Assembly (NCBI GenBank): GCA_973895155.1
Contig: OZ316895.1
Coordinates: 15,506,816 to 15,570,815 of the forward strand
Source: Marsupella aquatica
Lineage: Eukaryota > Plantae > Marchantiophyta
DNA length: 64,000 nucleotides
Direction of reading: 5' to 3'
The first letter of the stretch is position 1. Each line of letters opens with the position of its first letter. Shown here piece after piece: positions 6,681-42,856 of the stretch. A program made the translations under genes and the position numbers. The notes beneath the pieces were generated by a model. It saw only the letters and a program-made list of their open reading frames with translations. It was not told where the DNA came from and searched no databases.

Positions 6681-6682
6681 CT

Positions 6683-14536: not shown

Positions 14537-17134
14537 ATGGATACCCCACTTCCATTGCCCGTTGATGGAGGTGAGGGTGTAGGGTCATTAGAAAACTCTC
14601 CTCAAGAACGCTCAACCGGGTCTGTGTTAGTCAACAAACTCTCTAAAGGAAAACCCAGTTCAGACGATTGTGGTGCTTGAGCGGTAGCATCTATTGAGAA
14701 ATCTAAAGGTAGAGTCAAGCCAACTTCAGAGGCGACACACAACGAATGGGATCCAGCCGGGTCTGTGTTAGTCAAACTCTCTAAAGGAAAACCCAGTTTA
14801 GATGATTGTGTTGCTCGAGCGGTAGCATCTATTGAGAAATCTAAAGGTAGAGTGAAGCCAGCTTCAGAGGCGACAAACAACGAATGGGATCCAGCCGATT
14901 TTTACAAGGATGCTCACTTCTTTGCTACCCAGTTTGGCCTTCCGAATGAAGGCAAAAATCTCCATAGAATCATTGACATCAGTGAGGAAATGCTAGTCAC
15001 GTGCTTTGGAGATAAGGGACGGAGCGATTACAAACTAGGTAGTTGCACAGGCTTGCCACAAGAGGATGTCTTACATTTATCCCAAGTTGTCGATGGATAT
15101 GAGAAGCCGGTGAATGGAGTGTTGGCACATACATTTGTTAAGGGAGTGTATGCTAAGCGAGTGTTGGGGAGGACAGTTAATTGGGCCGCATACGCTGCAT
15201 CTAAGTTGAAAGGCCAGATTGTTCAGTGGCATAGAGAAGGCAAAGGTAAGCCTAATGGGCCCCCTTGTGTAAGGAAGACTGGTCGTGTCTATAAGCGCGC
15301 AGATACACAAGTTATTGAGGATGCAATTCATGAGGCAGTTCCTCCCCGAGTTCCTTCAGGCCTCTCTTTGAAAGAGCCAACGATGAAGTCTCCAATCCCC
15401 GAGAGCGGATGGGATGTTCTTTCCCTCGAAAAAGTTCCTGCTGAGCTACTTGGTACTGCATCTGCCTCCCCTATTCCGTGGGTGCGGCCAAGTCCTTCCA
15501 CTCTTGCGCAGTCGCCAAGTACCCCCCCCTCGTGCCTTGTTACTATCCATGCTTGAATCAGAAATGTCATGGAGTAAGAACCAAGTAAGAGAGGCCCGCG
15601 AAGATGTTCAGAAACTTCTTCGAAGCCTGGAAAATTTAAAATCTTCAGAGTGCGACCGGCGAAGTGCACTGCAGCGGATTCATCATCAAATTTGCAAACT
15701 AGAGGAGGAGCTGAAGCTTGTAAAGGATTCAATATCAAATGAAGAAGAGAAGCATGAAGAAACCACGAATGCCATTGAGTTGGAAGAAGGCAACCAATGT
15801 GAAGACGATGAGGTTTCACTTTGATCAATTTCCACATTAGTTTTTATCACACTTTCTATTTATTCTCTTCACTAACGTTGGAAATCTGAGATTAGTAGCT
15901 TGCAGCTAATATGATTTGTGAGTTGATGAATGACACTCTGTTTTTTATTCTTTGTGACAGACCCCCAACGATTACTTGACACACCTTCAGATTGATCTGA
16001 AGCAGCATGAGGCCACAATTGAGATGTTGAACTCCCGGTCAAGATCAATTTCAGATGAGTTGACTGTGTTGAGGATGCTCCACACCGACAAAGATCATAT
16101 GTTCAAAGACTTGCCAAGCAAGGTGGCAAGATTGACCAAAGTCGTGGAAGAAAGGGAGATTGTCGTTAAGGGGGTGGAGGAGCTTCTGGAAGCTCAATCT
16201 CAGGAACATTCCATTTTAAACAAAGTTTTGAAGCATCCTTGCCCTGTGTTAGCTCCTCGTTTTATTCCTACTTCTTGTCGATCTGTAGGAGTCCAAGCTT
16301 CACTTAATGTTTGTCCAGTGTGTTGCAATGGGTTTCATTGCTTCAACTGGATTCCAGCATCTTGTGGGCACACCTACCATCCGAGTTGTCTATTTCCAAT
16401 ACTCGGTTCATCAGAACAGAGTGCTAAGTGTTTGGCATGCTCCTATGCCTTCAGTGATGATTGGTTGCAAAGTTGGGGTTTGCCAAGTTCATATGCATCA
16501 CCAAGTCCGGTTGAATCACGGCATTCTTACATAACAGACTTAAAAGATATGTATGGGAAGAAGGGCAGATGTTTGGGAAGATGAAGAGAGGTTTCGCGGA
16601 TAGTTCAAACAGCTCAATCACAGGTTTGAATTTGTAAAGCAATCTTATGAATTATTTGTGCCTGCACATCTCTTTATAGTTTGTAGACACATTTTTGCCT
16701 GTTATGTTTGCACCCGTATGATTTTGTCAACTACTGTAATTATTCGGTGATTGTATTTTCAGGGGGATTCTCACGGCCAAGCTCTCATGTATTTGAGCAC
16801 CATATAGACCACTTCCATCATTGATATAGGCGATGATGAGCCTGAGGACGGATCCTCTAAGATACCTTTGGTGACACCAAAAGTAGAGGGTGGGGAGTCG
16901 GGAAAGAAACGAAAGGTTGAACAGGAATCAGCTAGGAAGGTGAACTGTAGCCAAACGTTGTCGAGTCCAGATACAATGCCTTTTTCCCCTGAGTGTGGCG
17001 TTCATGTCAACTATAAGCGTTTGGTGTTGGTGAAGACACCTCTTGGATTCTTGAGTCAAGCACTTGGCGGAAACTCACCTACTGTGACTATTCCCGCTCA
17101 TTCCTCCCAAAGGAAACTTCCTATGGATGATTGA
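14537..17134 (+). pseudogene. Multi-exon coiled-coil + RING-finger protein (Sola2 cargo); 3' end approximate
   Basis: ATG 14537; ~141-bp tandem duplication at 14617-14900; frameshift in a C-run near 15525; intron ~15813-15960; RING CPVC...CGHTYHPSC...CLAC in 15976-16584. Confidence 0.75.
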
Positions 17135-17436
17135 CTTTCAAGTTATGATCCAGGAAAAATCATTGCCCTCTCCAATGTAAATTGTGCATCTGCAGTTTGT
17201 AGTGAGGAGAGCTATGGTGACAATTGTTAGAAGATGCATTCAAGAAAGGTTTGCTTTAACTCAGTTTTTGTTTTGTGCAGCAAACTCGTGCACAGCGGGG
17301 CCGAAAGTCCTAGTATTGAGCTCTGTGTAAGTTCCTTTTTGGATTCTCTCCATAGCTTATGTTCATTGCTCTGTATTGATTTGCACTACTTGTAGGTCGT
17401 GGAGTCAGTAACTCCAAGTCCTTGTGTCAAGACACT

Positions 17437-17840
17437 TCAGGACTCTTTGAGTTGGGGGTCACGGTCCTCATGTCAGGAATTGTGGTCCTTGTGTGAGGAC
17501 TCCGGGTCCTTGATTCAGGACTCGGGGTCCTTGAGTCAGGAATTGTGGTCCTTGTGTGAGGACTCCGGGTCCTTGATTCAGGACTCGGGGTCCTTGAGTC
17601 AGGAATTGTGGTCCTTGTGTGAGGCTCCGGGTCCTTGAGTCAGAACTCTGGGTCCTTGAGTCAGGACTCGGGGTCCTTGAGTCAAGACTCCGGTCCTCGC
17701 GGTTCTTTAGTCAGGACTCCGGTCCTGACTCAAGGACTCCGGTCCTTTAGTCAGGACTACGGGTAACTGATGATCAGTATTGTCTTCTAGTCAAGACTGG
17801 GGGTCCTTTAGTCAGGACTTGAGGTGCTTGAGTCAGGGTG
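17437..17840. repeat. Tandem array of ~21-bp GAGTCAGGACTCGGGGTCCTT units
   Basis: Directly visible; quasi-palindromic AGGAC...GTCCT core. Confidence 0.9.
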
Positions 17841-17931
17841 TTGGATTGAGATCCTCTTTAGTTTGCAAGAGAAACCATCCGGTGACCAATAGTTGATATG
17901 TAACCCTTCATATATTATCTTTGTGCAGATC

Positions 17932-18183
17932 ATGGACAATCTTGAGGACAAGTTCACCACCCTGGTGGATATCAAAATTGACCACATGTGGGGAGTTTGT
18001 GCTGGGTCATTTGTTTATGAAGGCTGCAATGTTTTGTTGAGTGATGGTAAGCCATGCACTTTGGGCAAGAATGCCCGCAGGCTGAGAAAATTGAACCCTC
18101 AGTCTCCCGTGGGTCCTCGTTCTCGAGGACGATCCGAACATGTCTGCTGCAGTGTTGGAACTGGCAGTTTTATGTACTGCTTT
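17932..18183 (+). pseudogene. RPA70 C-terminal OB-fold/Zn-ribbon-like gene, 5' part (split by CACTA-1)
   Basis: FVYEGC...C...CC...YCF| continues in frame after the TTT TSD at 28284. Confidence 0.65.
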
Positions 18184-19015
18184 CACTACTACACTATTGG
18201 CCCCTTTTGCGAACCCATACACATCGCAAGCAACAAAGGCCCGATAAATAGAATTCTGACACTTGCGAACTAACACGCATCGCTACACCATCCCAAATTG
18301 TGAAGTTAAAACCTTCGCACGCGGACCATCGCAACGCCATCGCAACACCATGACAATTTCCTAACCGAATTCCCTCGCAACTTGTCAAACACTTGCGAGT
18401 TCAAAATCGTTGCAGATGCTTCGCATTATGCCGCACGGTCCTTTGTTATTGACGTTGGTTTTTGTGAAGCTGGAAGGTTCGCTACGTGTTTGTGATGGGA
18501 ATGAGTTTGATATTTGCGATGTCGTGGGGTTGGCAACTAGCGAGCCTTATAAGATCACTCTTATGCGAAATGAATTTGGTGGGGACTTCCGATCTAAATT
18601 GGATCGGAACTTGTGAGTTGGTTTAGGCCAGAAGTTGTGAACCGTTTGACTTCGCAACTTGTGATGTTACTTGGTTCTATAATAGCGATCCGAGTCATTT
18701 CAGTATTTCCTAGTTATCCAAGTTTGCAATGGGTTCACACTTTCATGGGAACACGACTTTCAATCAATGTTTTGCGAGGGATTTCTCTTGGCAGTGGACC
18801 CAATGTGGAAGGCAAATGTTTTTTATAAGATCCATGCAAGTATATAGGTGGATATACCAAAATGTTAGGGCTTGTTAAGGAACCCAATACACAAGAGGGG
18901 TGGCATATCTGATGCCAAGTCACCCTACTCAACATATGCTATCCTAGCTAAGCTCCAACACGGCTAGTCAGTGACATGTATCTCATGAGCCCGGTCATGA
19001 GATTCTACAAGCTAA

Positions 19016-21062
19016 CTAAAATGGACTCTTCCGACCCCGCTTTGTCGACTTCTTTGCCGGCTTCTTGCCCTTATCCTTCTGTGGATGTACAGCCTGGTGC
19101 TGACGGGTGCGCGGTGCCTTTCGGCGCTGCTGCTCCTCCTGCTCCTCCTCCTCCTCCTCCTGCCCATCCTCCTCCTCGTCACCTCGCTCCTGCTCCCCCT
19201 CATCATCAACCTGTCTTGATGATGCACGACTACTACCACTACCGCGATGGGATGAACCTACCTCCCGGCTACTGCCCCTCTCCCTAGAACCACTGGTAAG
19301 AGGAGTACCCCCTCATCCTCATCATCACTACTACTTGCGTCAGCACCTGACCCCTCAGGCTCATCCGAATCCTGCATCCGTACACTTAATCAGTTTCTAC
19401 AAATTAAAAAGGGTCATCCACAATGTTGGCATCACAATTAATTAAACCTTGAACACCTAGATACTTACAGTAGCCAACTCGGCATCCACCATCTGAAAGA
19501 GGTACTTTCTCCCATGCTCCATCCCTATCTCAATATGTTTCTTGGATATCTTCCTCTTATATTTCCGGTACTGCCATGCACCATAAAACCAAAAAGTAAA
19601 CCCATAGGCTAAACCAAAATTCACAATGCGAGAGGCCTTAGGCCTAGAAAAGTTTTGAAAACAACTCAAATTCACATTTGCGAAGCTAATGCGGTCACAA
19701 AATGCGAAGCCCTAATGTTTGCGAAGGCATTGCGATGGCTTTTGCGATGCACATACCTTCGCAACAGCATCAGAAAGTCCAAAAAGAAAAAAGTGCATAA
19801 TAGAGTTTGCGAGGCTCTTGCGAACGGATACGCATCGCAATGGGATCGCAAACTGTGATCTCGAGAGGTTTTAAAAAATGCGCAAATTTCTAAGTGTCAG
19901 TCGTGACCTAAAACAATGCACAAGCAAGCACATGAGAGCATGGACATTCATGACATTCCATTCACTTGCATTACCTCAACTGAGAAAGTAAGGAGGAAAG
20001 AGCTTAGGGAGGAGAGGAGACACTCACAAAGTGGGCCTTGAGACCTAGGAGCCCGCCTTGACCTAGCTTGTGGACTGGATTGGGGGTGGCTTTCACTCGC
20101 TTGGCTGCATCCATGAAATGTTTGGGTGGTCTTCCTTCTTCGTCGACCACCTTTTGCACATCAGCTACCTTCTGCTCGAGTCCCTTCAGGTCATGGTCAA
20201 GGGGGAGCTTCCCGGTCTCCTTTGCTTTCAGGGATCGAGCTAGTGTATCCTTCCATTGTTCCAACTCGCGAGCTGCTTTGATTTGCACCTCAATCTTGTA
20301 AAATGCATTCCAGATGTCCTCAGTGAATTGGAGGGGCCTGCGCAAATTCCTGTACGATCTCAAGTCTCTCAGGTGGGCTCTAATCTTCATCCTATCATGG
20401 TATCTCATTTGAGACATGGAATTAGAAATCTTGTCTGCCAGCCATTGCTCATCTATGTCAGCTCCATTACGAAATGCATCCTTGATCTGATTCATCACTC
20501 TCTTTCGCTCTGCCTTCTCAACCTTTCCCCATTGCATGCCTCGTGAGAAATTGCTTGTGATGATCTGTTTGATGGTGCTCTTAGCCCCTACATAGGCTAG
20601 CTCAGTTGGAGTCCCAGTTGTCTCCAAGGCAATGAATGGAAGCTTTTTCCTTGCATCCTCTTTCTGACGTTGCTCATCTCGTTGTTTTCGAATTGCATCC
20701 CTCTCCTCTCTTCTCTTCTGTTTTTCTATGGCTTGAGGAGAGGCAACTCCCGACTTAGCCCTCTCCTCCCTCTTCCTTCTTTTCTCTCTAGCCTTCTCCT
20801 CAGCTGCGACCCTCTCTTCCTCGTCTCTAGTAGCTTGCCCTGCCACAATTCCTGTTTGCAAAACCTGGCCTAAAATGGCACTCAAGGAGGCAAGCCCTGC
20901 TGGAGTATTCAAATTTACTTCACCCAACTGTGCAGCACTGAGATGTTGGGCTACTAAGTCGCTCCATGCATTCTGTTGCTTCTCCTGATTTGCCCCATTG
21001 CCACTACCACCAGCACCATGTCCTCCACTCCCACCGTGCTCTCCACTCCCACCGGTAGCCAT
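19016..21062 (-). pseudogene. TnpA/ORF2-like accessory protein of CACTA-1
   Basis: Predicted exons 21062-20028, 19570-19469 and ~19372-19016 (acidic/basic tail, probable 1-nt deletion in a G-run). Coiled coil and VHKLGQGG motif reminiscent of the Ptta/En-Spm Transposase_24 domain. Confidence 0.6.
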
Positions 21063-21529
21063 AGCTCAATCCCTCTCAGGTCTCTCTCGATCTTCTCCCC
21101 GCGGCCCCTTCTCCTCTCGCTCTCCCGATCAAACAAGGAATGAGCTTGATGCAAGCTCCCGCCGACACTTATGCATTTCAAAAAAACCTCTTTGCGATCA
21201 CATTTGCATCACAAACTGCCACCCTATTACCTTCGCAAACGGTCTCGCAACTTGCGATACTTTTGTGAAGAAAATACCCTTGCTAATCCATCGCAACCCG
21301 CAGAAACGCCCAAAAATTGTTCTCGGCCTCTGTATTTGCGAAGATGTTGCGAACCCGGGAGATTCGCAAAATGCATCTCTAATTTGTGAAGCAATTTGCG
21401 AGGCAGGTGATCTCGGTTTAGGGTGGGAAACTATCCCAGGTGTTTAAACGGCTTTACAAGGGTATGGCCTATTTAAACCCTTTTAACTCAACATGGATTT
21501 GTGAATGGCCAATTAGTTTGAAGAAGAGG

Positions 21530-22450
21530 ATTTTAGGTTGTAGTTGGGCTTTGTGTTTTTGTTTTTGAATCTTAATTGGGTTCTAATTTAACAAAGGGTT
21601 TGAGTTTTAATTTGGGGTTTGGATTTAGAAAGGGTTTAGTTTAGGGAGGGTTGTGTTTCAATTGAAGGGGTTAATTTGGGTTTAGGTTTTAATGTAAGGG
21701 TTGGGTTTGACTTTTCACTGATTTCATATTTTTTGCTCTATACATATTTCAGTTTAGGGACATGGTTTTAATAGAGGGCTTTAAGTTAGGGTCTAAGGTA
21801 GGGGTTTGGGTAAGGTTGTAATTGAGAAGTTTGGGTTAGGGTTTAGGGTAGGGGCTTGATTTTGGTTTAAGTTTAGGGGTTTGGGTTAGGGTTTAGGGTA
21901 GGGGCTTGATTTTGGTTTAAGTTTAGGGGTTTGGGTTAGGTTTAGGGTAGGGGCTTGATTTTGGTTTAAGTTTAGGGGTTTGGGTTAGGTTTTAAGTATA
22001 AAGGTTGGGTTCCATTTTAATTATAAGTTGTGTTTCATTTTTAATTGAGGGGTTTGGTTTAGGATTTTTGGGTAAGGGTTTGATACGTAATGAGGGAATA
22101 TGGATAGGTAACTTAGGATGGAGTTTGAGTTAGGGTTTAAGGTAGGGGTTTGAGTAAGGTTTTAGCTGAGGGGTTTGGGTTAGGTATTGAATATAGGGGA
22201 TCGATGGGTTCAATTATAATTCAAGCTTGTGTTTAATTTTTAATTTAGGGATTTGGGTTAGGGTTTAGGGTAAAGGCTTCATAGGTAATGAGGGAGTTTG
22301 GGTTATGGTTTCAGATGGGGTTTGAGTTAGGTTTTAGCTGAGGGATTTGGGTTAGGGTTTGAATGTAGCAGTTGGGTTTTTAGCGGAGGGGTTTTGGTTA
22401 GCTAGGGCTTTGGGTAAGGGTTTTATATGTTCATGTTTAGGGTAGGTTTT
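21530..22450 (+). repeat. Degenerate plant telomere-like (TTTAGGG) tract inside CACTA-1
   Basis: Many TTAGGG/TTTAGGG/TTTGGG units, including a ~50-bp unit repeated three times at ~21829-21990. Confidence 0.85.
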
Positions 22451-22886
22451 TTTTCTAATTGAGGGTATGCTTTCTTTATTTCATTAACATGAAGGGGTGG
22501 AACACTCTAGGAGTTACAGGGCACTTCCCCATCATTTTGAGAGTTTTGGCTAATGCATATGCATTGCGAGAGCTCAGGCATCTGAAAGGTAAAGCTTGTT
22601 TTCCTGGCATTTTTTATTTTTACTGTAACTTGAGGGTCTATCATCCCTTTCTATAGTTTACCATAAGTCATTGCTTAATTCATTGTATATTTGCAGATTT
22701 CTCCCTCCTACTTCCAGATTGGGTTCATCAAGTTTGGACCAAAAGACCTATAGGCATTGCTGAGCCCGGGTCTCATAAAGGTATTTTTTCCTTTCATTTC
22801 AGTTTAATATGTCTACTTAGGGATTACAAATGATCGTTTTAGCTATTTGTTTACTAACTCGCTATTCCAAATCTTCCACTTGCCAG

Positions 22887-24036
22887 ATGTCTTCATCCTC
22901 TACAACTTCCACCACATCAGACTCCTCTGATGAGGACATAGATCCTCCTCCTCAGCCTGAAACAGTCGCTCGTCGACCTAGTGGTCCACCACGCCAACTT
23001 TGCAGTTGTAAAAAATGTGTGGGGATGGTTGTCCAGAAGTCATATGTATGTGCAGACCATATTTCTCGATATGGACAACATCGAGGTCTTACACCCGGAG
23101 CCTCTTCATCCCATACGGTGAGTTGTAAACTTACTATGGTTTATTTTTTATTCAATAAATATTGCTAGCATGATAAGTTGGGGAAGTTTACAATCACTTT
23201 GTTGGATTTGTTCCCTATAGGTATCTAATAGGCCTACACCCACGGCACCAGCACCCTATATTCCCTCACAAGGAGTTCTAGATGCTATAGGCTCGGCCCT
23301 TTCACAAGCTTTCCGTTTAGTTGCAGCAGAGCGAAGTGGTGTTGGGACAGTTCAGGGTGATGGTATTGTTACACGAGGGAAAAAACGGTCTAAAAGGCAA
23401 CCTAGAGGGGAAGTTGATCAGTACACCTGTAGGGTTGATGGTAGGTGGGGACCTTGTACATTCACAGGGAAATGTGTTCCTATCATAAAGGATTGGAATC
23501 CTGATTGCCTTGGTTTGCCATGTGATATAACCTATGGTGAGGAATTAGAGGTTTGGGGAAGACATTGGATTGTCAAAAGTTCTACACTAGGGGAGAGACA
23601 TGGGTATGGAATTTTTTCTTGCCAGGACATCATTGTGGATGATATGGGTGGAAAAGGGCGCTCTCAAGATGGACCAACGTTGTTCCCATATGGTGGACCC
23701 ATTTACAAGCGAAGACATTGGAACATGCTCCTTGTACAACACCCTGAGTGGAAGACTTATGCATTGGACATGGATACTTTTGATGGTTGCACTAGGAAGT
23801 ATAGTGAACAACATATAATTGATGGTGATCCCATCCGTAGTGGAAATATAGCCGGTTTCATTAACAGTACTGTGGGGACCCGGCCTAAGCGTAGGAAAAA
23901 CTGTGAATGGGTTTTTGTTGATGGTCCCCCTCCAGCACCATATGGGCAGAGATATCATCATGACCATTGTCTAGTTGTAGCTACTAGGACCATCAAGGCC
24001 GGAGAGGAGTTGTTTACACATTATGAGTGGGATTAG
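22887..24036 (+). CDS. Zn-domain-SET (lysine methyltransferase fold) protein, exons 22887-23117 + 23221-24036, ~348 aa
   Basis: Phase-0 donor ACG|GTGAGT; acceptor CCCTATAG|GTA; open frame. SET motifs VKSS..HGYGIFS, IIDGD..GNIAGFINS, NC, LVVATRTIKAGEELFTHY. Confidence 0.8.
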
Positions 24037-27000
24037 GCTTATTTTAGGGACATGTATTATTTATATGTTCCTTCATGCTTTGTGAACAAATATTTTATAA
24101 GTTAGGGTTTACACCCTAAACCTATGATGTTCTTTCACATTGTATGTTAATAATATGTGTCGATATTGTTTTTGTCTTATGAGGGATTTAATTTGGAGTT
24201 TGATTGTGAATGCTTTATTGTATTGTCCATAGAATGTGCGACCTAGTCAAGATATGTTGCCAAGGAGGTTGAGAGCTACATATGAAGAAATGGGCATGCC
24301 ACAAGACGGAGTCACATCATCAACAGATTCTTCATCCAATGACAGTGACAATGAGGGTTTGGATGAAGGGGCACCTAGGACAGATTTTGAGGTCATGCAG
24401 GACCAGGAGACAGCCATGGATGACTTCATGACAGATTGGTTTGGTGTGGACGCCCGTGTGGACGTTGATGGTGAAGGACGTGGACCACCCAATGAAGGAG
24501 CTCCTCCACCAAATGCTGCACATGACCCCCGACCTCAACATACACCAGAAGGTCAACAACAATGGGAAGAAGCGGAGGCACATGCTAGAACACCTATTTA
24601 TGGTGGTGCTCGTTTGAATAGACTCTCTGCCATCTTGGCATTGATGAATCTTCAGGCAAAACACAAGGCAAGCAATGCCCTTCTATCGGATTTGTTTGCA
24701 ATTTGCCATGACCTCATGTTACCTAGTGACAATGTATTGCCAGGAACTTGGAAGGAGGCAAAGAGAGTTCTATCATCCATTGGTATGGAATATCATATCA
24801 TTCATGCTTGTGTGAATGACTGCATCCTATATCATGAGACCAATGCCAACATAACTGAGTGTCCAATTTGTCATGAGCCTCGATATGACAACAACATGTT
24901 GACGGAAAAGGTGCCCAGGAAAGTTGTCCGTTGGTTTCCCATTATTCCTCGATTGTTGCATATGGATCGATGTTCTGACTTGGCAGAATTGATGGTATGG
25001 CATAAGACACATCAATCAGAGGCCGGTGTCATGCGGTTGCCAGTTGACTCCCCTACTCACAAGCATGTGGAGGCACAATGGCCAGAGTTTGCACATGACC
25101 CTCGTCATGTGAGGTTGGGGTTGGCATCGGATGGGATCAGCCCACACTCCCTTGGTGAAAAAGGACGCCCAACATCAGTTTGGCCGGTGATTGTTATGAA
25201 TTACAATCTTCCACCATGGTTGTCCATGGAAAAGGGCTTCTTGTTGCTATCATTGATTATCCCAGGTCCATCTAAGGTAAAAAACATAGACACCTATTTG
25301 GCACTATTGGTTGGGGAACTCCAAAAATTATGGGACGGTGTGTGGGCCTATATGGTCAAAAAACTACAGGGAGATTATCACGTGTCTTCAAATTGAAGGG
25401 AATCAATATGTGGACCATGCATGACTATCCTGGTAAGGGGTATGGATTGGTGTTTTTTTTATGTATTATAGAGTTTGTTTTAAAAGAAGTCCCTCATATT
25501 TATGTATGTACATGAACTTTTTAAATCCTTTGACTCTAATTGAGAAAGTTATTTTGGTTTGGGTTTGTTGTAGGGTTTGGGTTTGTTTCAGGGTTACAAA
25601 CTCAAGGGTATAAGGCATGCTCCACTTGTGGTCCAAGCCTTGAAGATATGGCCAAGTACTCAAGATGGCTTCGCAAGATAATCTACCTTGGGCATACCAA
25701 GTTTCTTCCACTTGGACATGAGATGAGGTCTGACCCCCTTCTATTTTCAGACTTTGACATGATCAATGATGATGAGCGTGACATACCTGAGCGTACATCC
25801 TTTGCACATTGGAAATCCATAGCTGATAGGGTGGCAGACCCTAACGACCCCATGACATTTGATGGAAGTGGGTTGACGAGGTGGAGTATACTAGCCACAT
25901 TGCCGTATTGGCTAGAGTTGAAGATTCATCATTTGTTAGACCCCATGCATATAGAGGGAAACGTTGGGAAGGCTTTGATCAAGCATTTTTATGGAGAAAA
26001 GGACCATAATTTTAGGGAGGCATGCCAGGATCTAGAACGACATCCAGATGTATGGATAACAGTTGATGCATCAACAGGGATGGAACACCGTCCTTCAGTT
26101 CCTTGGGTTTTGAGTGTTGGTGAAAGAAGAGAGTTTCGACAACGCATAGGTCAGATGCGGTTTCCTACAGGCTATGGCGCCAATCTTCGGAAAGCTTTTG
26201 GTATGGAGGACAGTCATAAGTGGCCAATGTATTTGAAGACACATGACTATCACCGTTTACTACAACATATACTTCCTGTGGCAATCATAGGCTTGGGCAG
26301 TGAAGAAGTGCAAGACGCCCTATGGTCATTGGGCACTTTGTTGAGATGGATATGCTCAAAGGAAATATATGAAGAAGAGATCCCACGGATCGAGGTATTG
26401 GCAGCAGAGGTAGTGTGCAAGTTAGAGAAGGCCCTCCCTCCTTCCTTCTTTGATTGTCAAGTACGTACATTTACTTGTTCATCTTGTGAGGGAGGTTGCC
26501 ATTGCTAGTCCAGTGCATTGTCGTTGGATGTATTGGTTGGAAAGGTATATGGCTGTGTTAAAGGCTTATGTACGGAATCGTGCACGAGTGGAGGGGAGCA
26601 TGGCAACAGGATACTTGACAGCTGAGAGTATGTTCTATTGCAGCAACATCTTAGCTATCATTGATCCTAGTTGTCCACGCAGTTGGATGGAAGAGAGAGA
26701 AATGGAGGAGGATCGTTTAACACGAGCCAAAAAAACACGCTTACTGACCGGAGTGGAGTTGACACAGATGACTACTTTCATGTTGAGTAATAGTACTATG
26801 ATGGAAGAATGGAGAGAGTTTTATGAGGATGCAAAGAGGGAGAGTCGTCGTCCAAGGATTTTTCCAAAGTTCCTTGAGTATATGAGGGAGAAAGTACTTC
26901 AGTTGGATGCTATGGTGGCCCAAGGTGAGAGTGTATCACATTTTCCAGATATGACTCCTGAGGTTCAAACAATTGTTCATGGCCCTTTGAGACTTGTTCA

Positions 27001-27526
27001 GACCAGAACAACATTGTGGACACAAGGGAGACATTTCAGGATTTCTGACCTTGATGAGAAGAGGGGTAGAACTTTTGACTGTGAAGTTCAAGGGCAGTTC
27101 ATGCAGGATTCACAAAGTAGCCGCCATGACACCAATGTCATCCGAGATGTGGTGCCTCACTATGGGAAGATAGAGGAGATCTTGATTGTATCCTATGACG
27201 CGGATACAAAATTTGAAGAGTATGTCTTCAAGTGTAAGTGGTTCAAAATTCACTTGGCTGGTGAGAATCGCACAGTACTTCTTGATGATTGTGGGTTTAC
27301 TCGACTGAAGACATCAGCAACTAGCTTTCAACCATCTCATTGGCAAACATCTGAACCGTTTACATTCCCAAGTCACCTTGAGCAGTGTTTCTATATTCCA
27401 TACCCACCAGACCCAGAGGAGTGGTCAGTTGTTATACCGTATGTGCCATGATCTCGTTCCATTATCTCAAAAAAACCTGAAGTTATTATTGTGTCAAACG
27501 GAGGAGAGGATGAGGACCAAGTTTGA
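22887..27526 (+). pseudogene. TnpD (Tnp2/Transposase_21) transposase of CACTA-1
   Basis: Exon 1 has CSCKKC..H (transposase-associated domain); exons from 24233 and 25574. Motifs IHACVNDC, RLGLASDG, YNLPPW, HDYP, LDPMHIEGN, MYWLERYM. Frameshifts near 25350 and 26461; stop at 27449. Confidence 0.93.
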
Positions 27527-28283
27527 TGCATCACTAGTAGTAAAACTTGTTGTGAGCGTATAATTGTGGTTATATTAACTATCATGGTTTTATTTATATT
27601 TACCTATTTATTTTCTTCTTTTGTCTTACAAACACTTGGACTTTGAAATTTCATTTTACTGCTATACATGCAACCCTAGCCACTAGAAAAGTTATCCTCA
27701 TGCATGCCACCTTTTTTAAATCCCTAGCTTATAACCTAAACACATGCATTCTCCATCTTCTAAAGTATTCTCTCAAAAATTTCCATTCTGAAAACTTTGC
27801 AAACAACTCTCTTTGTGAAACATTTTTTGAACCAGACAGGAAGGAATTTCTGAACCTCTTGTGAATCCAATTCCATCGGTACTTGTGATACAAATACATT
27901 CTCAAACTTGCGACCAAATTGGCTTCGGTACTTTGCGACCCACCATTCTTCACAACACTTTCCGAACATAATAGGTTCACAAACTATTTGTGATAGTATT
28001 AGTCTCGCTAAATTATGAACCAAAATGTATCCGAATACGGTCGCGATGGTCGCGGACTCACAAAGTTGTTGCAAGACAACTAGTATCTAAACGTGTTGCG
28101 AAGTCAATAACATCAAAAATTAATTGCGATGTATGTAGCTTCGCAACGTGAATGTGCGATGGTAAGAGCATGGGATATTGTGATGCGTGTTGCATCACAA
28201 AATATCTGAAGGTTTTAACATCGCAAGGCCTTTTCAACGTCAAAAAACACCTTCGCAAAAGGGGCCGATATGTAGTAGTGTTT

Positions 28284-31985: not shown

Positions 31986-34900
31986 TTATGGATCCTCTAT
32001 GAACTTGCTTGGCCATAATACCAAAGAACCTGCAGCATCTCCAAGTGTCTTTTGAGGAGGATCATCATTTGTGTTTGGAATGGGAAGGACAGCTTTAGGT
32101 TTCACTAGTAATGTGACTAACACTACTGAATAACCTGGGGGAATCCTCTTGCCATGGAACGTTGTGGAACCAACCTGCACTCTGGCAAATCCTACTCGTG
32201 TTCCACTCTCATCAACAGCTAACAAGCCACTTTGTCCCTCAGCATTAGGTGCTTTCCCCACTTCCACCTTAGATCTTTCTGCCAGCACTGTTCTTGGAGG
32301 TTTGTATGAAACCTTTGACGTGGCTCTGCTCCCACCAGCAGACTTGCTTCGTGTGCGCATGCTTCCTCTCTTCACAGTAGTGAAGCTAGGCTCAGTAGGT
32401 TCCTCTGTTAGGACTGTCACAGTAGCAGGTTCATCACCTGGGAGTGTCATACCAACTAACTCTTTGGTTGGATTTATCTCAACAAGAGGCACACCTGTCA
32501 TTGAGAATGATACATTCTGCAAATCATTTATCTCTGCAATGGAGTCAAGATCTACATAGCATGAATCTGGCTCAATGGTATCATTGTCATGCTTGCTGAT
32601 ATCCTCATTTGCCCCAACATTGATATCATCCACTCCCTTGCCAATGTCATCCTCATCCAAACATGGTTGACTGCCCTCTGTCAAACAAGTTGCTTGTACA
32701 GATTGCAACTTTGTTGCCTCTAAATTACAGCGAGTATTTGCCAGGTTCTCATACTTCTTCTCTGTAGCACCTGTCTTATTCTCTATGGACACAACAACCA
32801 CAATATATGTTACTGAAAATAACACATTCAACAAACAATGTCAATTCAAACTATACATTTAATAATCATATCCCACACAGTTGTAAAGGCCTTACCTTCA
32901 AGCCTACATGTCGTTGGCATGCCAGAAGAGTGCATCGACTTTGCCACCTCAAGTGGTGATGGTGGAACTCCTGCAGAATTGGAATCAATTTTATCTCTCA
33001 CCGACACAACAGCTTCCATTAATGTCTTGAAGTTCACATGGAACAAGTCAGTCAATGAATTCAAACGTTCATTGATCTCTGGAAGACATGTTTCGACAGC
33101 CTTCAAATGACCACTTATCTCTGTAAGTGAAGATCCACCTCCCTACATGACACAGGGGTATAGGTTCAATCACTCCATATGAAATGTTGGGCAATATATG
33201 CACAATCAATGTTATATACAGTGTACACCTGAAATTCAACGCAGGTCATTCAATTACCAATCAGAACTCATATAACTTACATGCTTGGAGGATTCAGATG
33301 CACCCTCTTGAGCCCGGGTGTTCACAATTTCAGCCCTCAACTCTTCTTTTGAAGGGCTTTGCCCCAATTGGGCTTTCTGCACATGCATGGCAAACACAAG
33401 TTATCGATCAATATTCAGGGAACGTACACTAAAAAACAAAGTTTACATGTATGGGTTTACACTAAAAAATAGTACATAGTGTAGCATAAATTACATAGCT
33501 AGGCCATTCATTCTTACCAAACGTTTAGCTGTCGGTGCAGTGCCGGTCCTTCCTGTCAGATTAGGGTTCTGAACACTCAACCTGGCCTCGGTCATCTGTG
33601 AACTCTTCTTTTTTGAAGCATCTGTTACAAAATAAGCTACTAACCTTGCCCACACTTTATCATCACAACTGGCTGGTGGAGGCATATCTGGCTTCTCCCC
33701 ATCTTCCTTCCAAGCCTTATGCATTCTCCACCTCTCTTGCTTGATAATTTTACCTGCTGTACTCTCTAGGCAACCTATGTCCACGCCATCATCACTGCCC
33801 ACATAATTCCATTTGGCAGCAACATTTTCACATACAGTCTTCCAATCTTTTGGATGCTGTTTTTTAAAATTAATAACACTCACATCTAACCAACGCAATA
33901 CTTCAGCTTTCAAATCAGCATGCCATCGGTTCTTGCGAGGACACTCAGCATCCACCCATTGTCTCTCATTCAACTTTACGTTCCCTTTCTTTGTCACCTC
34001 CCCTCGTGCACTGCTCTCGGTAGTACTGGGCGTTGTATTGGCCACCCCTTCATTCACCCTACCTGGGGTTCTGAAGCCACCTGGGAAAATACAATGCCAT
34101 TCATGCTTGAGAACTACATATAGCAGAATGGATGACGGCAACATTCAATGCTTCACTTCAAGAAAAATTCTTCAAACATACATACCTGTAGCTCTGCCTG
34201 TAGATGCCTGTGCAGGGACTGCACTCTGAAATTGTTGCGACCCTGGACCACCTGTTAGCCTAGTACAGGGGCCGGATGATGTCACTTTCTAGGTATGTGT
34301 GTGCAAACATATGTACTGAAAACTAAGTACAAACTGTAGGAAAACAACTGAACATTCACCGACATACCTATCCCCCTTCCGTGCTGCATCTACATAGGGG
34401 CATTAGTGAATACTTGAGTCGATGGTTCGACTGTCCAACCTGCACACATACATTTTCTATCATTATACATGTGCAGAGTCCCCCCCACGTGAATGGACTC
34501 CACATATAATGAGTTCTTCCATTGCTGACAAGATCAGACATTACCTGCTCCTCTTCCAGCGTTTGTAGGTACTGAATTTTGATATCCCTGCCAATTACCT
34601 TCACCACCTTCCCAACCTTGTTCATTCCACGACCCACCACCATCCTCCCAACCTGGTTCAACCCATGTCTGTCCTTGTGGACATTGGAACTGATCATTAC
34701 TAGCATTTGCCCAATCAGGTTGGGCAGAATCTGCATGCAATGGCAGGTGGACAGAATTTCATGTTGTCTGAATCCAATACATCCCAAACAATGTCAAAAA
34801 TTGATATGCAGTCTGAAATTCAGGAGTGCCATGCCTTCACAAAGAACTGGCATATAGATATATACTCACATCCCCATGGTTGAGGTGGACGTCCATACCC

Positions 34901-35691
34901 ACGAGATTGTGGGTTTGGACCTGCTCTGCCTCTACCACGGGCATAACCTAGAGCTTGCCCCCTGCCATAGTATTGGGCACCAGCCTGGGATCTACCACTA
35001 CTACCACCTCGCCAACCTTGATCAGAGGTCAGCCCCCCCTGCTGGTATGGTGCATGCACAGGCTTCGAAGGCAAAACAGAACTGGCAGGACGCTGCATCA
35101 CATCACCAACTACAATGTCAGGAACTAAGCAAGGTACATATGTGTAGTACTGAACATATGAAACCTCTAAACAAGAGTTTTTAACTCAAAACCTTGTTGG
35201 GAAAACTACTTACATGTTTCTTTTGGGGCTGCTCTGCAATGTATTCATCTTCATAACCCCCATCCTCATCCATTTCCTCTGGAAAATACTCATCATCTGC
35301 ATCTTCTTGTCTAGTGTCTGCACCCACCTGTGCAACATCAATGTCATCTCCACATTCTGCCATTGTAGGTACGACCTTCTTGCTCAACCTGTCACTCCGA
35401 CGCACAGGCCCAGAGATAGTGCTGGTCACCCTTCTTGTGTACTCCTTTTGTTTCTTTGAAAATGCTGTGGCTCTGCGACATTCCAATATGAGAATACAGT
35501 CACAATTTCAGTGCCACATTGAACTATTCATGTCACACAAACTCAGCGGAGGGGTGTAGTTGAGAATCGTTCCCTTACAATTTAGCCACATCCTTTTCCA
35601 GATCCAGTTCTGCGATTTTGGCTTTCACGTATGCTCGTTGTTCCATAGCTTTCCTTTCATACTCACACATCTCTGTGTCACTCTGTTCCAT
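31986..35691 (-). CDS. TnpA-like multi-exon protein of CACTA-2 (exon boundaries only partly resolved)
   Basis: ORF pieces 35575-35691, 35181-35486, 34820-35101, 34534-34740, 33491-34144 (PPP..W..LV.YF...KS..AR, Transposase_24-like), 32846-33106 and 31986-32834 (FHGKRIP..LP.P..TLGDA.GS.VLWP, Tnp1-type C-terminus). Confidence 0.75.
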
Positions 35692-35847
35692 CCTACTGGA
35701 CCACAAAAACATGTCATCTATGGTCACCCCGTATAACACAATGCAACCACAATCACCAGGCATCCATCCATACATCTGTGTTGCTTCAGAATTACTTTAT
35801 TACACATCCTTCCCCTCACTAATGTCCATGCAAACAATTCACATTAC

Positions 35848-38800
35848 TCATGGCACAGGCACACTATTGACATCTGCATCTCTGAATTCGCCTCCTTCAG
35901 CAAATGCATCTACCCTTGTCACAGGAATGAAGTCCCTGCTATCATGAACTACAGGCACTTGGTCTGAACGCCGACGATCAAAGGCACTATGAGAGTGTAA
36001 ATGAAACTCAAGGTTTGATCCTTCCATCCGACGTTGCCTGGCCTGTTTATGACACACTACACGCCAACCTGGGGAGTCTTCCACATCCAGGAAGAAAGCT
36101 TGCTCCACCTGACTAGGAAACACAAATGGCTCAGACCGTTCGAGCAATTTCCCTCTGAAATTGGCCAGCAAGAAACCGTCGTTGTCTCTCTTCATGGTAG
36201 CCCTGTTACCAAGCCAATCCTGCCGCACCCATGAACCTTTCATAAGAATCACAGGACTGGACACCGCCCCATAGTCCAGAGCCCATATGTCAACTAATTC
36301 TCCCACATATCCCATCTCCATCCAGGCCCTGTCGTGATTGTGGCTCTGTTGCTCAAATACAGTGATGAGCCCGCAGTCATTCGTCACCCTGTAGGCACTG
36401 TCACCATCCTTCACTCGGAAGTGATTCCCATATGCTCTCATCCGTTTGTAAGTCTTCACTTTCAGGCTAGGGGCATTAGACAGTAGGTAAACATCTGCAT
36501 CCATGTCTGGGTGGGTCTCGTGATGCTCTCTAATTGCCACTCTGATCCACTCCATGAAACCTGGAAAAGTTGTTCCTGCAGTGGGATGGGCCGCCTTCAA
36601 TGACTCATACTCCCTGAACGAACAACCACACAGCATTAGCTTGGGTAAACATGAACAGGCTGAAGGAGAAAACCACACGAACACAACATTTAAGCTCATG
36701 AACTGGATTATAGCACATGTATGCACTCACTGTATCCAGGGTTCCATCACCACAGTGTTGTGCAATACAAAGTCATGTGCCAAGTCTCTCATAGATATGG
36801 TCAGGTTCTTTGTGGTTGCAGCCCCTTCCAGTACTTCACCTATCACCCCTTCCTCCTCATCAGAATTCCACACCCTGGTCTTCACATGCTCATATTGTGC
36901 TATGTATTCGGTCAGAAATCCCAGAGTCTCATCCTTGATGTAACCTTTAGCCATGCTTGCTTCAGGTTTGTAATATGTTCTCACGTGACCTTTGAGTAGC
37001 TTCATGTACCGTTCCAAAGGGTACAACCAACGAGCACTCACAGGCCCAAATTGGTGTAGCTCTTCCACAACATGGACAAGTAGGTGGGTCATGACATCAA
37101 AAAATGCGGGAGGAAAATAAATCTCCAGGTCACACAGCACCTGAGCGACATCTTCTGTCAGTTGTGGGAAGTGTGTTTCATCCCAAACCTTCACACAAAT
37201 ACGACGAAACACATCACTGAGTCGCATGATCACAGTACGAACAGGCTTCTGCAACAGGCCCCTTAGGCATAAAGGCAACACCTGTTGCATCAACATATGG
37301 TAGTCATGGCTTTTCATACTACCAAGCTTTCTAGTCATGATATGCTTCTTGAAAGCACTGCCATAGTTTGAAGGAACCTTCAAAGAACTCAACCTCTGCA
37401 CAAATAGTTCCCACTCTGTGTCTGTCAGAACATAGGGCGCTTGGTACTTCAAGAGCACATCAGCTCTGTGGGCATGTGGCCTCAACCAAAGATGGGGTTT
37501 CATTCCCCTCTGTTCAAGATCCAATCTCACTGAACCAGTGTCTTTCTCTCCACACAAGAATTTGAGTAGACTCTCACAAATATTCTTTTCAATGTGCATA
37601 ACATCAATGTTATGTTTGCTTGGCTCAAACTCCTGCATCATTGCAATGCAAAAGCGTCAGGAAATGCCTCAAGTTTAGTCTCTCTCTTCAAAATGAATGC
37701 ACATGCTCTGAACCAAAACATGTATCCCAATTAGCATCAACTCCAAGAGGCTTACCCTCCAGTACTTGAGCTCCAAGTCCAATATGCTCAGTCTTTTTAC
37801 ACCATATCGCTTTATTGGATCACTCACTCCATCTTCCCTGCCCCCTCGTTTGATATAGTCATCCCTCAGTGCTCCCCACTGCCTGATCTCCTCTTTGGTC
37901 ACTCGTGCCGGGGGTCCACGTTGCTCAATCTCATTGCCAAAGTGTGCAATCAGTGCCTGTCTTTCTCTGTAAGGGTGATCTGCCTTCAGAAAATGACGAT
38001 GGCCCATGTATATCACTTTCTGCAGGGCTCTGGAGTACTCAGTGGTGACATTGCGCCCACAGATAGTACAAGCACAATATCCTTTTGTTGTTTGGCCTGA
38101 TATCATCCCATGGGCTGGGTAGTCAGCTATAGTCAGAATGACAATGGCTCTAAGGATGAATGGGTTTAACCTCCCAAGCCTCTGTAGGACATCATATGTG
38201 AGAACTCCTTCCTCCCAAAGCTTTCTCAATTCCTCCACTAGGGGAGCCAGAAACACATCTATGTTGGCAGATACAGCACTGTCTGGCCCTGGTATCAGTA
38301 GGACCATCAGAACAAAACATCGCTTTGTAGTCATCCAAGGAGGAAGGTTATAATTCAAAATAGTTACAGGCCAGCACGAAAATTTGTTGTTCTTGTCTCC
38401 AAATGGGTTTACCCCATCCAATGACAGCCCAAGTCTGACATTCCTCGGCTCAGCAGCAAATTCGGGATACATCTCATCTATGAGTTTCCATTGCCTTGAA
38501 TCTGCAGCATGTCGTTGTAGCCCATCATCACTTTTCTTGTCAGTTGCCCAAGTCATCATCTCCGAGATGGCACGGCTTCTGAACATCCGCTGAAGTCTGG
38601 GAATGAGTGGAAAATGACGAAGTACCTTGGCGGGAACCATAGACTTTCCTGAGTTCCGATACCTGTGCTTCCCACACTTAGGGCATGTCAACGATTCTTT
38701 ATACTCCTTTCTGAAAAGAACATGCCCATCAGGACAGGCATCGATCGAATCATAGTTCAATCCAAGATTAGATGTGCATCTTTTTGCCTCGTACATGTTC

Positions 38801-39579
38801 TTGGGCAAAATATTACCATCTGGTAGCACAGTTGTTCGCAAGAATGCCAACAACTCAGAAACCAAAATGTTGGGGACATTGTGGTTGCCGCAAATGTTCA
38901 GGAACATGATGACAAATCCCAGTTTAGAACATTTGCTACCGGGGTACAAAGACTTCATGCCTTCCTGTATTTGCAGGGGAGAGCCAAACATCCCATCATG
39001 CCCAGGGGTTTCCTGCCCTATCTCAAACTCATCAAGAGGCTCTTCGACAGGGGGCACACTTGCATCTGCAGCCGTATCCTCTTCATTGTCCAGCCCATCA
39101 TGAAATGCATCCAAGTCTTGGAAGATGTCTCTCACCATCTCTTCCACATGAATTCCTTCGTCACGTGGTGCTGCCTGAGCACCATCCCGTTGGAGAGCTG
39201 ACAACCCACAGAGACCAGCTACAACATTTTCAAATGCACCAGGCAGAACCTCACTTGCCCGTCTTGCAGCATTGGCAGCATCAAATTCTAACCTCCACTC
39301 CTCATCGGAAGAATATTCCTCTGCAGGATCATTCCAAACTCGATGTCGTGGATCTCTTCCATGAACCGCGATATGCCGCCAAACCTCATTCAGACCCCTG
39401 GTACGGGATCCTTGGCAGATTGCACAAGGACATCTCATCCTACTGGCTCCTGAAAGTCTGGTTCGTAACCTTTCACGCTGCCAAAGCTTATTATCATGGC
39501 GTGATATCCTTGTGGGATGATGCAAAGGCAGTGCCTGTGCCCTGGGCTGGGTCTGGGGAGGGTGGTGACCAGGGTGCAT
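35848..39579 (-). CDS. TnpD transposase of CACTA-2, apparently intact (~1163 aa)
   Basis: Exons 39579-37756, 37632-36731 and 36613-35848 with canonical, phase-compatible GT-AG introns. Motifs CPCAIC, LGLSLDGVNPF, YNLPPW, ADYPA, DVMHIEKN, LYPLERYM, EPFVFPSQVEQ. Confidence 0.93.
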
Positions 39580-40012
39580 TGTAACAGGCTGGGAGCTCTG
39601 CAGTCATGGACAGCAGTGAACAAGGATGCCTAATGGTGGTATTTGTGTTCCATATATCCCTGATTGTATCTACCAAAAGAGTTAACATAACGTGTACTAA
39701 ATTCTCACAAACCCTAAACCACCCCAAAAGAAAAAAACAGGTTCGCAAGTAGTGTACCTATTGTCAAGTGAATGACACAAAATTCCTAAATGTTGGAGGG
39801 TGTCACCACCTCCTCCGCTATCCTCAAATGTACCGCCTCTGCATGTACGTTTACAGTGACACCCCCAGGCAGCAGGAAACAACAATCCGCCAACAGTAAA
39901 ATAAGCCCAACTGCCACCAACCATAACAAGGTACATTAGTTCAAAGATCACATTTATTTCAATGATCTGATTTATACAAAAAAACTTGTGTCCAAACTGA
40001 TGCTACTACTCC

Positions 40013-40885
40013 TCACTCTGATTCAGAATCGCTAATGACCCATTCCTCACTTGTTGTCTCATAGTCCTCTCTGTAAGGATCCTGACCCTTCCGTGGCCAG
40101 GCCTCAAAAAGATCATAGTCCATTGGGTTTTGACGCTTCCCAACTGCTACTGATTCCACAAGCCAAGCATATGAAACCACAAACACATTATGGGACATGA
40201 CATAAAAGCGAATGTCTCCCTTCCCAAACTTGCGGCAGGCTTTGGGATATGACTTAGTAATGACATGAGTGGTGTCCTCTGTTATATTCTCCTCCACTGT
40301 CCCACCTAGGTCAAGCACTGTGGACTTGTACACTTTGCACTTAACCTCTCCAATTCCCGCCTCCACAAATACCATGCTCAGCCCTTTCAGAATGGGGGTT
40401 GGTTGCTTCGTCTCCTCAGCCAACATACACTTCAGCCTTGTAGAGCTCTGTCCTTTGTTGAGTACAGGTCCATATTGGAGATCAGCAAGCCGTGCCTTTG
40501 CTTCCCAGACTTCTTGTTCAGCCCAAGTTGATGCAGAAGCTTCTTCATCCTCCCACAACTCATATTGCTCAGTATCCTGTACAATCTTATGTGCTATGGA
40601 ATCTGTGATCCAAGAGGCCTCAACTACTTTTAGGCCTTGCTTAGTAATTGCAGAATTCATGTAGGACCATGACCACTTCTTTATCACTGATAGCCATGTC
40701 CCTGCAACAACATGTGTAGTCTCTGGAGTGATGTCCTGAACTACAGTGCCATGGAGCTCAGAGAATCGTTTCTGTACAGTTGGCCAATGCACTTTGGTCA
40801 ACCCATGCTGGCCATGGACCAAAATCGCTCTGACCCTTGTAAACACTGCTGGGTGGTCACACTTTCTACGTTTACCAGGCTCCAT
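40013..40885 (-). CDS. Tandem BRCT-domain protein (DNA polymerase lambda BRCT-like), ~290 aa
   Basis: Two repeats of GTV....TTHV....VV..W...S; the second reads ILKGLSMVFVEAG...LGGTVEE...THV...KFGK...YAWLVESV..G. Confidence 0.8.
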   Translation of the reverse strand: MEPGKRRKCDHPAVFTRVRAILVHGQHGLTKVHWPTVQKRFSELHGTVVQDITPETTHVVAGTWLSVIKKWSWSYMNSAITKQGLKVVEASWITDSIAHKIVQDTEQYELWEDEEASASTWAEQEVWEAKARLADLQYGPVLNKGQSSTRLKCMLAEETKQPTPILKGLSMVFVEAGIGEVKCKVYKSTVLDLGGTVEENITEDTTHVITKSYPKACRKFGKGDIRFYVMSHNVFVVSYAWLVESVAVGKRQNPMDYDLFEAWPRKGQDPYREDYETTSEEWVISDSESE

Positions 40886-41477
40886 GTACACACACTCTAC
40901 GTGATGACAGTGAATTTTGGAAGAATGGGTTCACCTGACAATGCAAGGACAACAAAATTCCTGCTTTTTGAGTTGATCTGGCCCACTGGTGCTCAGGTCC
41001 GATTTTGATAGGTACAAGGGATATGTGAACAATACGTACTAGGCACCTGCACGGATGCAGGACATTGTTTGAATATATACTACAAAATCCATATCCGTGG
41101 TGAAATGAAGTGCAACCAACTTGTCATGGCACATACATATTTTGTTGTAAAGGAGGATACATTCAATGACAAACTTATAGGGCAATTTGATTAATTGCAT
41201 GCCTGATAATTTATACGCTTACAACTTAGAAGTCCTGTTTTAATTTAGCAGTCTGATGAAAGTGTTTATGAAAATGACCACTCAGCCTAAATACTTCCAA
41301 GAAGGCTTGTAAGGATAAGTTTGTATAGGCATGTACCCAGCCACTGACGCCAGAGCACAAGATAAGTGCTGCCTATATAAACTCGCCTACCCAACTCCTT
41401 TTCAAAATTGGAATCTCTGCAATCTCAAAAAATAGTACATCCACATCAGGTGCACTGTGCATGTACAATGTTCAGCT

Positions 41478-42158: not shown

Positions 42159-42856
42159 GCCTGCGCATGAGATAGACTCTACAATTTAGCAGACTGCACA
42201 GAAAGTAAAATATATTTAGCATTTAAGGTACAAAGGCATTTGCTACTGCAATGAATTGGAATGGCCACACAAGGATGCAGAGCACACATACTTTTGGTAT
42301 GTTGAGCCCACACACAAAACTGATCCCCTAATACAATTTCTCCACCAACACCTCAATTTTAATTGTGGCTATGATTCACCAAAGGAGATCTGCAACAACA
42401 TTTCATGCATTTGAATCACATACAATAGTCGTGACATGTAAAACAGGCATTCTTCGAAGAGGATTGGTATGAAGCAGTGTCATAAGGGTTGAAATTTATA
42501 CATCCTAAATAGGTTATGATAGTGGCTGAGACAAATAAGTGAGGCATAAATCATTTTGCATATTATCACATGGCCCATTAATTCATTCAACGTTGCAATG
42601 TTCACCAGGTTAAAGCAGTCATGAAAGCAGTCTTTCAATAGAGACTTTTATGCGAGTTTGCTAGCCTCTTAAATTAGGATATTTTGCTTAGTGCAGGCAT
42701 AATAGGATATAAGTTATGTACTGTTGACCCTAAACCCTGGACCCAAAATTGCTCATACATCAAAATTTTAAGTAAATATCCTCTGTGTTGAAGTCAGAGT
42801 GTTAAGCTATAGGTCAATGGTATCTGGTCTGTGCATGCGGTGTGACAAGTGGTCCT

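Follow-up and report, generated by a model that had tools for sequence, protein, structure and literature searches.

In this study, we analysed a 64,000-nt stretch of the genome of the liverwort Marsupella aquatica (assembly GCA_973895155.1, contig OZ316895.1, positions 15,506,816 to 15,570,815 of the forward strand; hereafter the window, in whose numbering positions are given). It contains a CACTA transposon whose transposase gene probably carries a SET domain as an alternative exon, as a first-pass annotation made from the same letters had proposed. The complete element occupies 18184-28280 and is 10.1 kb long. The best explanation overall, which we put forward tentatively, is that it represents an old bryophyte CACTA family with a selected SET exon and two splice products, one of which is likely a lysine methyltransferase that would mark the element's own copies.

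Predicted splicing of the transposase gene

Exon 1 (22887-23117, plus strand) has the features originally assigned to it. It starts with an ATG at 22887, is 231 nt long, encodes 77 amino acids and ends in a phase-0 GTGAGT donor at 23118. The encoded sequence has a Ser/Asp-rich start and a CxCxxC...H zinc-binding domain of the transposase-associated type. The CSCKKC...H pattern on which this domain had been called is present, but the match to the Pfam family PF13963 is weak (E 0.011, 16.3 bits against a cut-off of 27.7). Both phase-0 acceptors proposed for the donor fit it; their AGs end at 23220 and 24232, and the exons therefore open at 23221 and 24233. The first acceptor closes predicted intron 1 (23118-23220, plus strand, 103 nt, GT..AG, phase 0) and leads into the SET exon, and the second ends a 196-nt spacer with 71% A+T (24037-24232, plus strand) and leads into the transposase TnpD.

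Among 14 longer proteins of public gene models that match exon 1, ten have the exon 1-SET junction as predicted, three read through the intron and one runs on out of frame. Gene models from Calypogeia and from several species of Sphagnum repeat the same layout. In a distant relative (P0218, 37% identity), the CxCxxC...H pattern and the SET domain lie in one frame on a 2141-nt Logan contig that may derive from RNA or DNA. A splice from donor 23118 to 23221, yielding a 348-aa Zn-SET protein, is therefore predicted with good confidence. The junction of exon 1 with TnpD is suggested by homology and appears likely, if somewhat less so. Among the other TnpD hits listed, 91 of 117 include the zinc domain, which also shares one frame with TnpD in a second CACTA transposase gene of the window; in addition, the seven residues preceding the first Met of TnpD are conserved in a Sphagnum protein (P0084). 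Of five listed sequencing-run entries with matching sequence, none was recorded as RNA. Neither junction (23117-23221 or 23117-24233) was among the 15 listed of 17 joints for contigs from four sequencing runs, the kind of which is unrecorded and which are uninformative on expression.

The contig L001 has the same organization, with exon 1, a phase-0 donor, a 111-nt intron, an open SET exon, a 219-nt spacer and the same second acceptor, at which the contig ends. Despite this shared layout, intron 1 of the window and that of L001 cannot be aligned. The first-pass annotation had named a separate nested insertion as a finding that would speak against the model. The SET exon does not behave as one: it lies 103 nt from exon 1 and 196 nt from TnpD, has no element ends around it and shares its layout with L001, and the TnpD sequences linked to SET form one group. 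Upstream of exon 1, two small exons (22480-22886 in the window, 270-510 in L001) have splice sites that are conserved in L001. They include a 63-nt candidate leader exon (22718-22780, plus strand), with a further donor upstream of it at 22589, and both sites recur in L001. Since the frame of one small exon is open in the window and interrupted by a stop in L001, these are probably leader exons or a short upstream frame.

Sequence and fold of the SET exon

The SET exon (23221-24036, plus strand) is uninterrupted over its 816 nt (271 codons and a stop), in line with the initial description. It encodes a variable linker, a conserved N-terminal extension (residues ~70-112), the SET domain (~113-268) and a three-residue tail. 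The domain assignment was borne out by Pfam (E 2.4e-7, 31.6 bits against a cut-off of 22.4); 15 of 45 relatives match SET above the cut-off and 28 have any match. Flanking Pfam domains were found neither in the window protein nor in the 45 relatives, and no histone-reader domain was matched. Structure prediction from an 87-row alignment of the domain agreed with a SET fold (pLDDT 90.4, pTM 0.86; Z 11.9, rmsd 2.6 and 134 aligned residues in the structure comparison). An earlier model from a 23-row alignment that included the linker was unusable (pLDDT 40.7). The top Foldseek matches were SET8 and LegAS4 (E 5e-7). In a wide structure search EZH2, Set1, SET7/9 and SET8 were tied at Z 11.0-11.9 with 16-27% identity, and PR domains and SUVH9 were matched as well. 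A search of solved structures with the single SET sequence gave no hits, and with a profile LegAS4/RomA was the best match (E 8e-5). In a viral fold library, SET proteins were matched at 13-25% identity without a close relative, and a scan of 33 viral contigs gave none.

GxG, YxG and ELxxxY are motifs I, II and IV of canonical SET lysine methyltransferases. All three are present here, including the Tyr at the catalytic position. In the family alignment, G128 is kept in 77 of 81 rows, G130 in 80/82, N215 in 76/84, E263 in 72/73 and Y268 in 69/73. Y157 is found in 67 of 84 rows and replaced by Phe in 17. In EZH2 the active-site Tyr residues are Y641 and Y726 (PMC3868588). Two departures from the canonical domain, both reported in the first-pass annotation, were recovered. 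The FINS motif keeps the Asn and lacks the His of NHS (a His follows the Asn in 0 of 76 rows), and no post-SET region follows the last Tyr. The predicted structure ends level with residue 337 of SET7/9 and residue 339 of SET8. Judged from the alignment, the missing His and the missing post-SET region are family traits and not decay. A SET domain without the His can still be active: RomA, with the motif YINFS, also lacks it and methylates H3K14 (PMC10653858).

Selection and family distribution

Neutral evolution of the SET exon, which had been given as another possible refutation, was not observed; the exon is under purifying selection. In a comparison of the window with L001 (Nei-Gojobori, this one pair), dN/dS was 0.18 over the 154 codons of the SET domain and 0.30 over the whole exon; for the zinc core of exon 1 it was 0.11. 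Common variants (at least 30% share; contigs from two runs of one study) were silent in 16 of 19 cases, with three not silent and no indel listed. Under neutrality 23-32% would be silent (P 2e-8 to 5e-6, the latter even with transitions only). Short variant contigs on the SET exon numbered 527 and 103, as in a multi-copy family, contig depth not being equal to copy number. That the SET exon is a selected gene of the element is nearly certain in our view. In contrast, one argument for this did not hold. The intact SET exon had been set against the broken TnpD, in which at least three lesions were claimed and three were found, two frameshifts (near 25351 and 26460) and a stop at 27449. At three lesions per ~3150 nt, 816 nt would carry none with P = 0.46, so that this contrast means little.

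The expectation that the exon would be multi-copy was upheld, and it extends to several species. A search with the exon gave 40 matches among 782 candidates at 47-78% identity (eight from Sphagnum, two from Calypogeia fissa and 30 unlabelled). Three clusters of Sphagnum sequences contain 360, 112 and 75 members, those listed representing seven species. A profile search of 1.84 billion sequences returned 110 representatives at 50% clustering. Of the 20 that were looked up, four belong to Riccia sorocarpa, one to Calypogeia and 15 are without organism; no flowering-plant name occurs among these 20. A metagenome scan with the single sequence gave one locus from 100 stretches. In the core, identity to the window SET domain is 78% in Calypogeia, 72% in Sphagnum and 36-41% in Riccia, with a minimum of 30%, which places the window copy nearer to Calypogeia than to Sphagnum. 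The SET domain of the liverwort Calypogeia is 77% identical to that of the moss Sphagnum (window 23434-24033 against P0001, P0004 and P0214). This closeness, set against the distance of Riccia, may stem either from ancient lineages that persisted in parallel or from horizontal exchange between the two plant groups.

TnpD-like sequence was found in seven of 220 fetched SET-family proteins, each time behind the SET part, and SET in none of the 117 other TnpD hits. These seven proteins are probably mis-joined models of decayed copies, yet as predicted proteins they show that the two parts are adjacent, and in which order, in both Sphagnum and Riccia. The order zinc finger-SET-TnpD is conserved in moss and liverwort relatives. 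A TnpD tree was built from 36 segments (the window, four from Riccia, the second CACTA and every fourth of the 117 other hits). In it, the five SET-linked rows group with a support of 99/98 and the second CACTA of the window falls outside. The tree fits a single old capture of SET without proving it, because the sampling of bryophytes is thin.

Organization of the element

The element has the features of the CACTA/EnSpm superfamily, namely terminal inverted repeats (TIRs) starting with CACTA, a 3-bp target site duplication, a TnpD transposase and clustered subterminal repeats. The duplication reads TTT (18181-18183 and 28281-28283), and the left (18184-18213) and right (28252-28280) TIRs both start with CACTACTACA. 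The opening 10 nt are the same at both ends and the remainder is similar with a 1-nt offset. From left to right the element contains a minus-strand frame, a telomere-like array, the two small candidate leader exons, exon 1, the SET exon and TnpD. The first coding exon of TnpD (24233-25432, plus strand) encodes Transposase_21 and contains the frameshift near 25351, where related contigs differ by one base. It is followed by a predicted GT..AG intron (25433-25573, plus strand) and a last exon with DUF4218 and DUF4216 (25574-27526, plus strand), in which the second frameshift and the early stop lie.

The second gene is a 353-codon open frame on the minus strand (20004-21065). By its position only, it is a candidate for a TnpA-like DNA-binding factor. 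Searches against Pfam and structure-based searches gave no family or structure match, and it matched neither the Transposase_24 frame of the second CACTA nor the fetched proteins. The 64-kb window contains 53 TCGCAA motifs. The element accounts for 37 of them, and 35 of these are gathered in four clusters, at the element ends and around the minus-strand frame. Two clusters are subterminal, one of ten copies at 18184-18800 and one of seven, together with the right TIR, at 27780-28280. The two internal clusters have nine copies each, at 19600-19900 and, between the divergent genes, at 21180-21420. In L001, three TCGCAA motifs precede exon 1, at 40-89. Between the divergent genes lies also a degenerate telomere-like tandem array with a 25-nt period (21646-22430, plus strand), and TTTAGGG occurs 11 times within 21591-22460.

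Other features of the window

The second CACTA transposase gene (33494-39603, minus strand) has its zinc domain in frame with TnpD and contains no SET domain. Upstream of it on the same strand are a tandem BRCT frame (40016-40930) and NSD-type PHD fingers (41481-42185). The ends of this second CACTA were looked for and not found; if the BRCT and PHD frames lie inside it, it would be a second CACTA element with chromatin-reader cargo. The first element interrupts a region (14681-18183) that contains a 21-nt tandem array (17437-17844) and a coiled-coil and RING-like frame (15958-16581) and probably represents a mobile element of greater age. A Copia-type LTR retrotransposon occupies 326-6981, with 300-nt direct repeats at 326 and 6682 (98%) and gag-pol on the minus strand. 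Transposase-like frames lie at 49689-55484 and 61676-63999, adjoined by a kinase (52749-53726) and a RING finger (54915-55484). Moreover, there are a DUF7869 frame (62812-63999), hAT remnants (56442-58548) and a fragment of ribosomal protein L18a (44289-44654), which is probably a processed pseudogene.

Relation to known systems

The first-pass annotation knew of no described plant CACTA-SET system. This holds for land plants and for the alternative-exon layout, neither of which was found, and does not extend to red algae, where SET occurs in elements of the EnSpm superfamily. No SET domain in a land-plant transposon was found in the literature searched, which did not include Repbase entries, most subscription journals or supplements. 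A CACTA-SET system is not described in the accessible text of PMC11982613, and a term search of the main text of liverwort genome papers gave no SET domain, CACTA or EnSpm. Repbase entries or a survey of 962 Spm structures (bioRxiv 10.64898/2026.08.24.746577) could hold this family. In red algae, PAG2 of Plavaka, a member of the EnSpm/CACTA superfamily, contains SET (PF00856) and was proposed to modulate transcription (bioRxiv 10.1101/2025.02.11.637652). Both are thus EnSpm-superfamily transposons with a SET domain, the activity of which is predicted only. However, PAG2 forms a gene of its own, in which SET is fused to an adenine DNA methylase, and its element measures 17-19 kb, whereas here SET is an exon in the TnpD gene, behind the transposase zinc domain, of a canonical land-plant CACTA of 10 kb. 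The adenine DNA methylase domain PF01555 was absent from the window SET protein and the 45 relatives in Pfam searches. SET genes were also described in HarbingerS and MuDR elements of Phytophthora (PMC12730594), and SET captures by Helitrons are cited there and in the Bostrychia preprint (bioRxiv 10.1101/2025.02.11.637652). These, too, are DNA transposons that carry a SET gene, interpreted as a means of countering silencing, but they belong to other superfamilies and to oomycete or other hosts, and their SET genes are accessory genes and not alternative exons.

In maize, En/Spm makes TnpA and TnpD by alternative splicing (PMC13547354). Maize En/Spm and Arabidopsis EN/SPM3 resemble the present element in deriving transposase and regulator from one gene and in their clustered subterminal motifs. 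The TCGCAA core of the element equals that of the Arabidopsis TnpA-Spm1 binding motif, CCVTCGCAAA (bioRxiv 10.64898/2026.08.24.746577). The clusters in this bryophyte element share that core although, according to the same preprint, TnpA-like proteins occur in flowering plants only. TnpA, which has no enzyme domain, binds DNA by a helix-turn-helix and relies on demethylases of the host, unlike the alternative product predicted here, which is a SET fold encoded upstream of TnpD. LegAS4/RomA of Legionella (PDB 5czy, 8swi; Z 10.9), a parasite's own histone methyltransferase (PMC10653858), shares the His-less YIN motif. With an identity of only ~22-27%, there is no sign of common descent. The SET domain of SETMAR ranked 37th in the wide structure search. 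In SETMAR/Metnase, SET and a mariner transposase are joined through splicing in a domesticated single-copy host gene. Here, by contrast, the SET exon moves with an element present in many copies, and its use leaves out the core of the transposase.

Possible function and alternative explanations

How could such a product act? We propose that one promoter region feeds the transcript and that the choice of acceptor at donor 23118 joins exon 1 either to the SET exon (23221, Zn-SET) or past it to TnpD (24233, Zn-TnpD). The Zn-SET protein would be a lysine methyltransferase that marks chromatin at the element's copies and keeps them expressed. Since the protein stops three residues after the Tyr at the catalytic position, either its N-terminal extension or a partner would have to close the cofactor pocket. 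Targeting could occur via the shared zinc domain or via a second protein bound at the TCGCAA clusters. Since their core is that of the TnpA-Spm1 site, a DNA-binding partner is suggested, perhaps the minus-strand protein. That the protein acts as a methyltransferase, has a histone as its substrate and opposes silencing is our inference. Catalytic activity is slightly more probable than not; a histone substrate at the element's own copies, acting in its favour, is possible and is advanced with reserve. It is tempting to speculate further that the family has used a histone methyltransferase as an alternative exon since early bryophyte history, a minimal SET of a new type without a post-SET region, active only once a transposon-encoded partner at TCGCAA completes its pocket, which sets protective marks on the element's copies, but this full version is rather doubtful.

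Several observations weigh against this proposal. The gravest concerns the missing post-SET region, which speaks against an enzyme acting on its own. This region helps form the cofactor pocket in other SET structures with bound cofactor (PMC3868588), and its loss therefore casts real doubt on activity. The shortness of the tail is widespread. Of 69 rows (the other 18 of the 87 lack that Tyr or column), 39 end at most five residues past the Tyr, and a cysteine cluster was found in none within the first 40 tail residues. RomA differs here, as it has a post-SET region and, in addition, ankyrin repeats that it requires (PMC10653858). In EZH2, partners can complete the pocket (PMC3868588), and the conserved N-terminal extension and insert of the family could potentially do so here. 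Furthermore, the substrate cannot be read from the fold, because the top matches tie within one Z unit. CpG observed/expected ratios are 0.34 for the SET exon, 0.36-0.43 for TnpD and 0.36 for the SET-less CACTA; with depletion alike in all three, there is no sign of an escape from DNA methylation. The splice model rests on conserved splice sites and on gene models, which are themselves predictions, and in none of the 14 is exon 1 joined straight to TnpD. Binding of the zinc domain to DNA or to a second protein is a prediction, and TnpD of this copy is broken.

The doubt about catalysis leads to the strongest alternative, in which the SET fold is catalytically dead and has been retained for binding or as a decoy; it would hold on to a histone tail or to a silencing protein of the host and shield the element or recruit to it. 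Such a role would fit a family that lacks the post-SET region and the His, has Phe for Y157 in 17 of 84 rows and has a large conserved family-specific surface (residues 70-118 and 200-209). However, inactive SET domains tend to lose GxG, Asn and Tyr, and here GxG, Asn215 and Tyr268 are kept in at least 90% of rows, down to ~30% identity; we regard this possibility as the lesser one, though a serious one. If the enzyme is active, its target may be a non-histone protein (its own transposase, the second protein or a host silencing factor), and it would then time or permit transposition. SET7/9 and SET8, which tie for the best fold match, modify non-histone proteins too, the SET protein and TnpD would have a common N-terminus if the splice model holds, and the SET protein is without a histone-reader domain. 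We nonetheless think this rather improbable, as described transposon SET genes are read as histone enzymes (PMC12730594).

A mark might also be repressive and restrain the element's own copies, as PRC2 does on many bryophyte transposons. H3K27me3 covers 40% of transposons in Marchantia (PMC10952607) and EZH2 is among the tied fold matches, but that tie favours no single one of them and the family is high-copy in Sphagnum, which makes self-restraint unlikely. Least probable by far is a passenger without a role for the element, whether a fragment captured from the host, an insertion nested in the element or a host gene that was domesticated. The intactness of SET in this copy is not significant (P 0.46), and only seven of 220 proteins are tied to TnpD, because context is absent from most records; the deepest branches, P0272, P0274 and P0277 among them, may lie outside CACTA elements. 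On the other hand, a dN/dS of ~0.2, the 16 of 19 silent variants, the same order beside TnpD in moss and liverwort models, the lack of ends of its own and the failure to match any host SET family closely (the single sequence had 0 hits in the PDB) all speak against a passenger. In its neutral and nested forms this reading is largely refuted by the selection and layout evidence.

Implications

Hundreds of Sphagnum records labelled as SET-domain proteins are likely transposon cargo of this kind, and the family offers a compact SET scaffold without a post-SET region. Marchantia and Physcomitrium are transformable and related to the host plants. Since the family is small, confidently folded and present in plants with transformable relatives, its function is a testable question. 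For the transposon SET genes of oomycetes and red algae a function was proposed as well. Bryophytes are a plant group in which H3K27me3 as well as H3K9 methylation covers transposons. Plant anti-silencing factors described so far, such as VANC and TnpA, bind DNA and borrow host enzymes. If our reading of the Zn-SET protein as a methyltransferase acting on the element's own copies is true, a self-encoded SET enzyme would represent a different route of anti-silencing.

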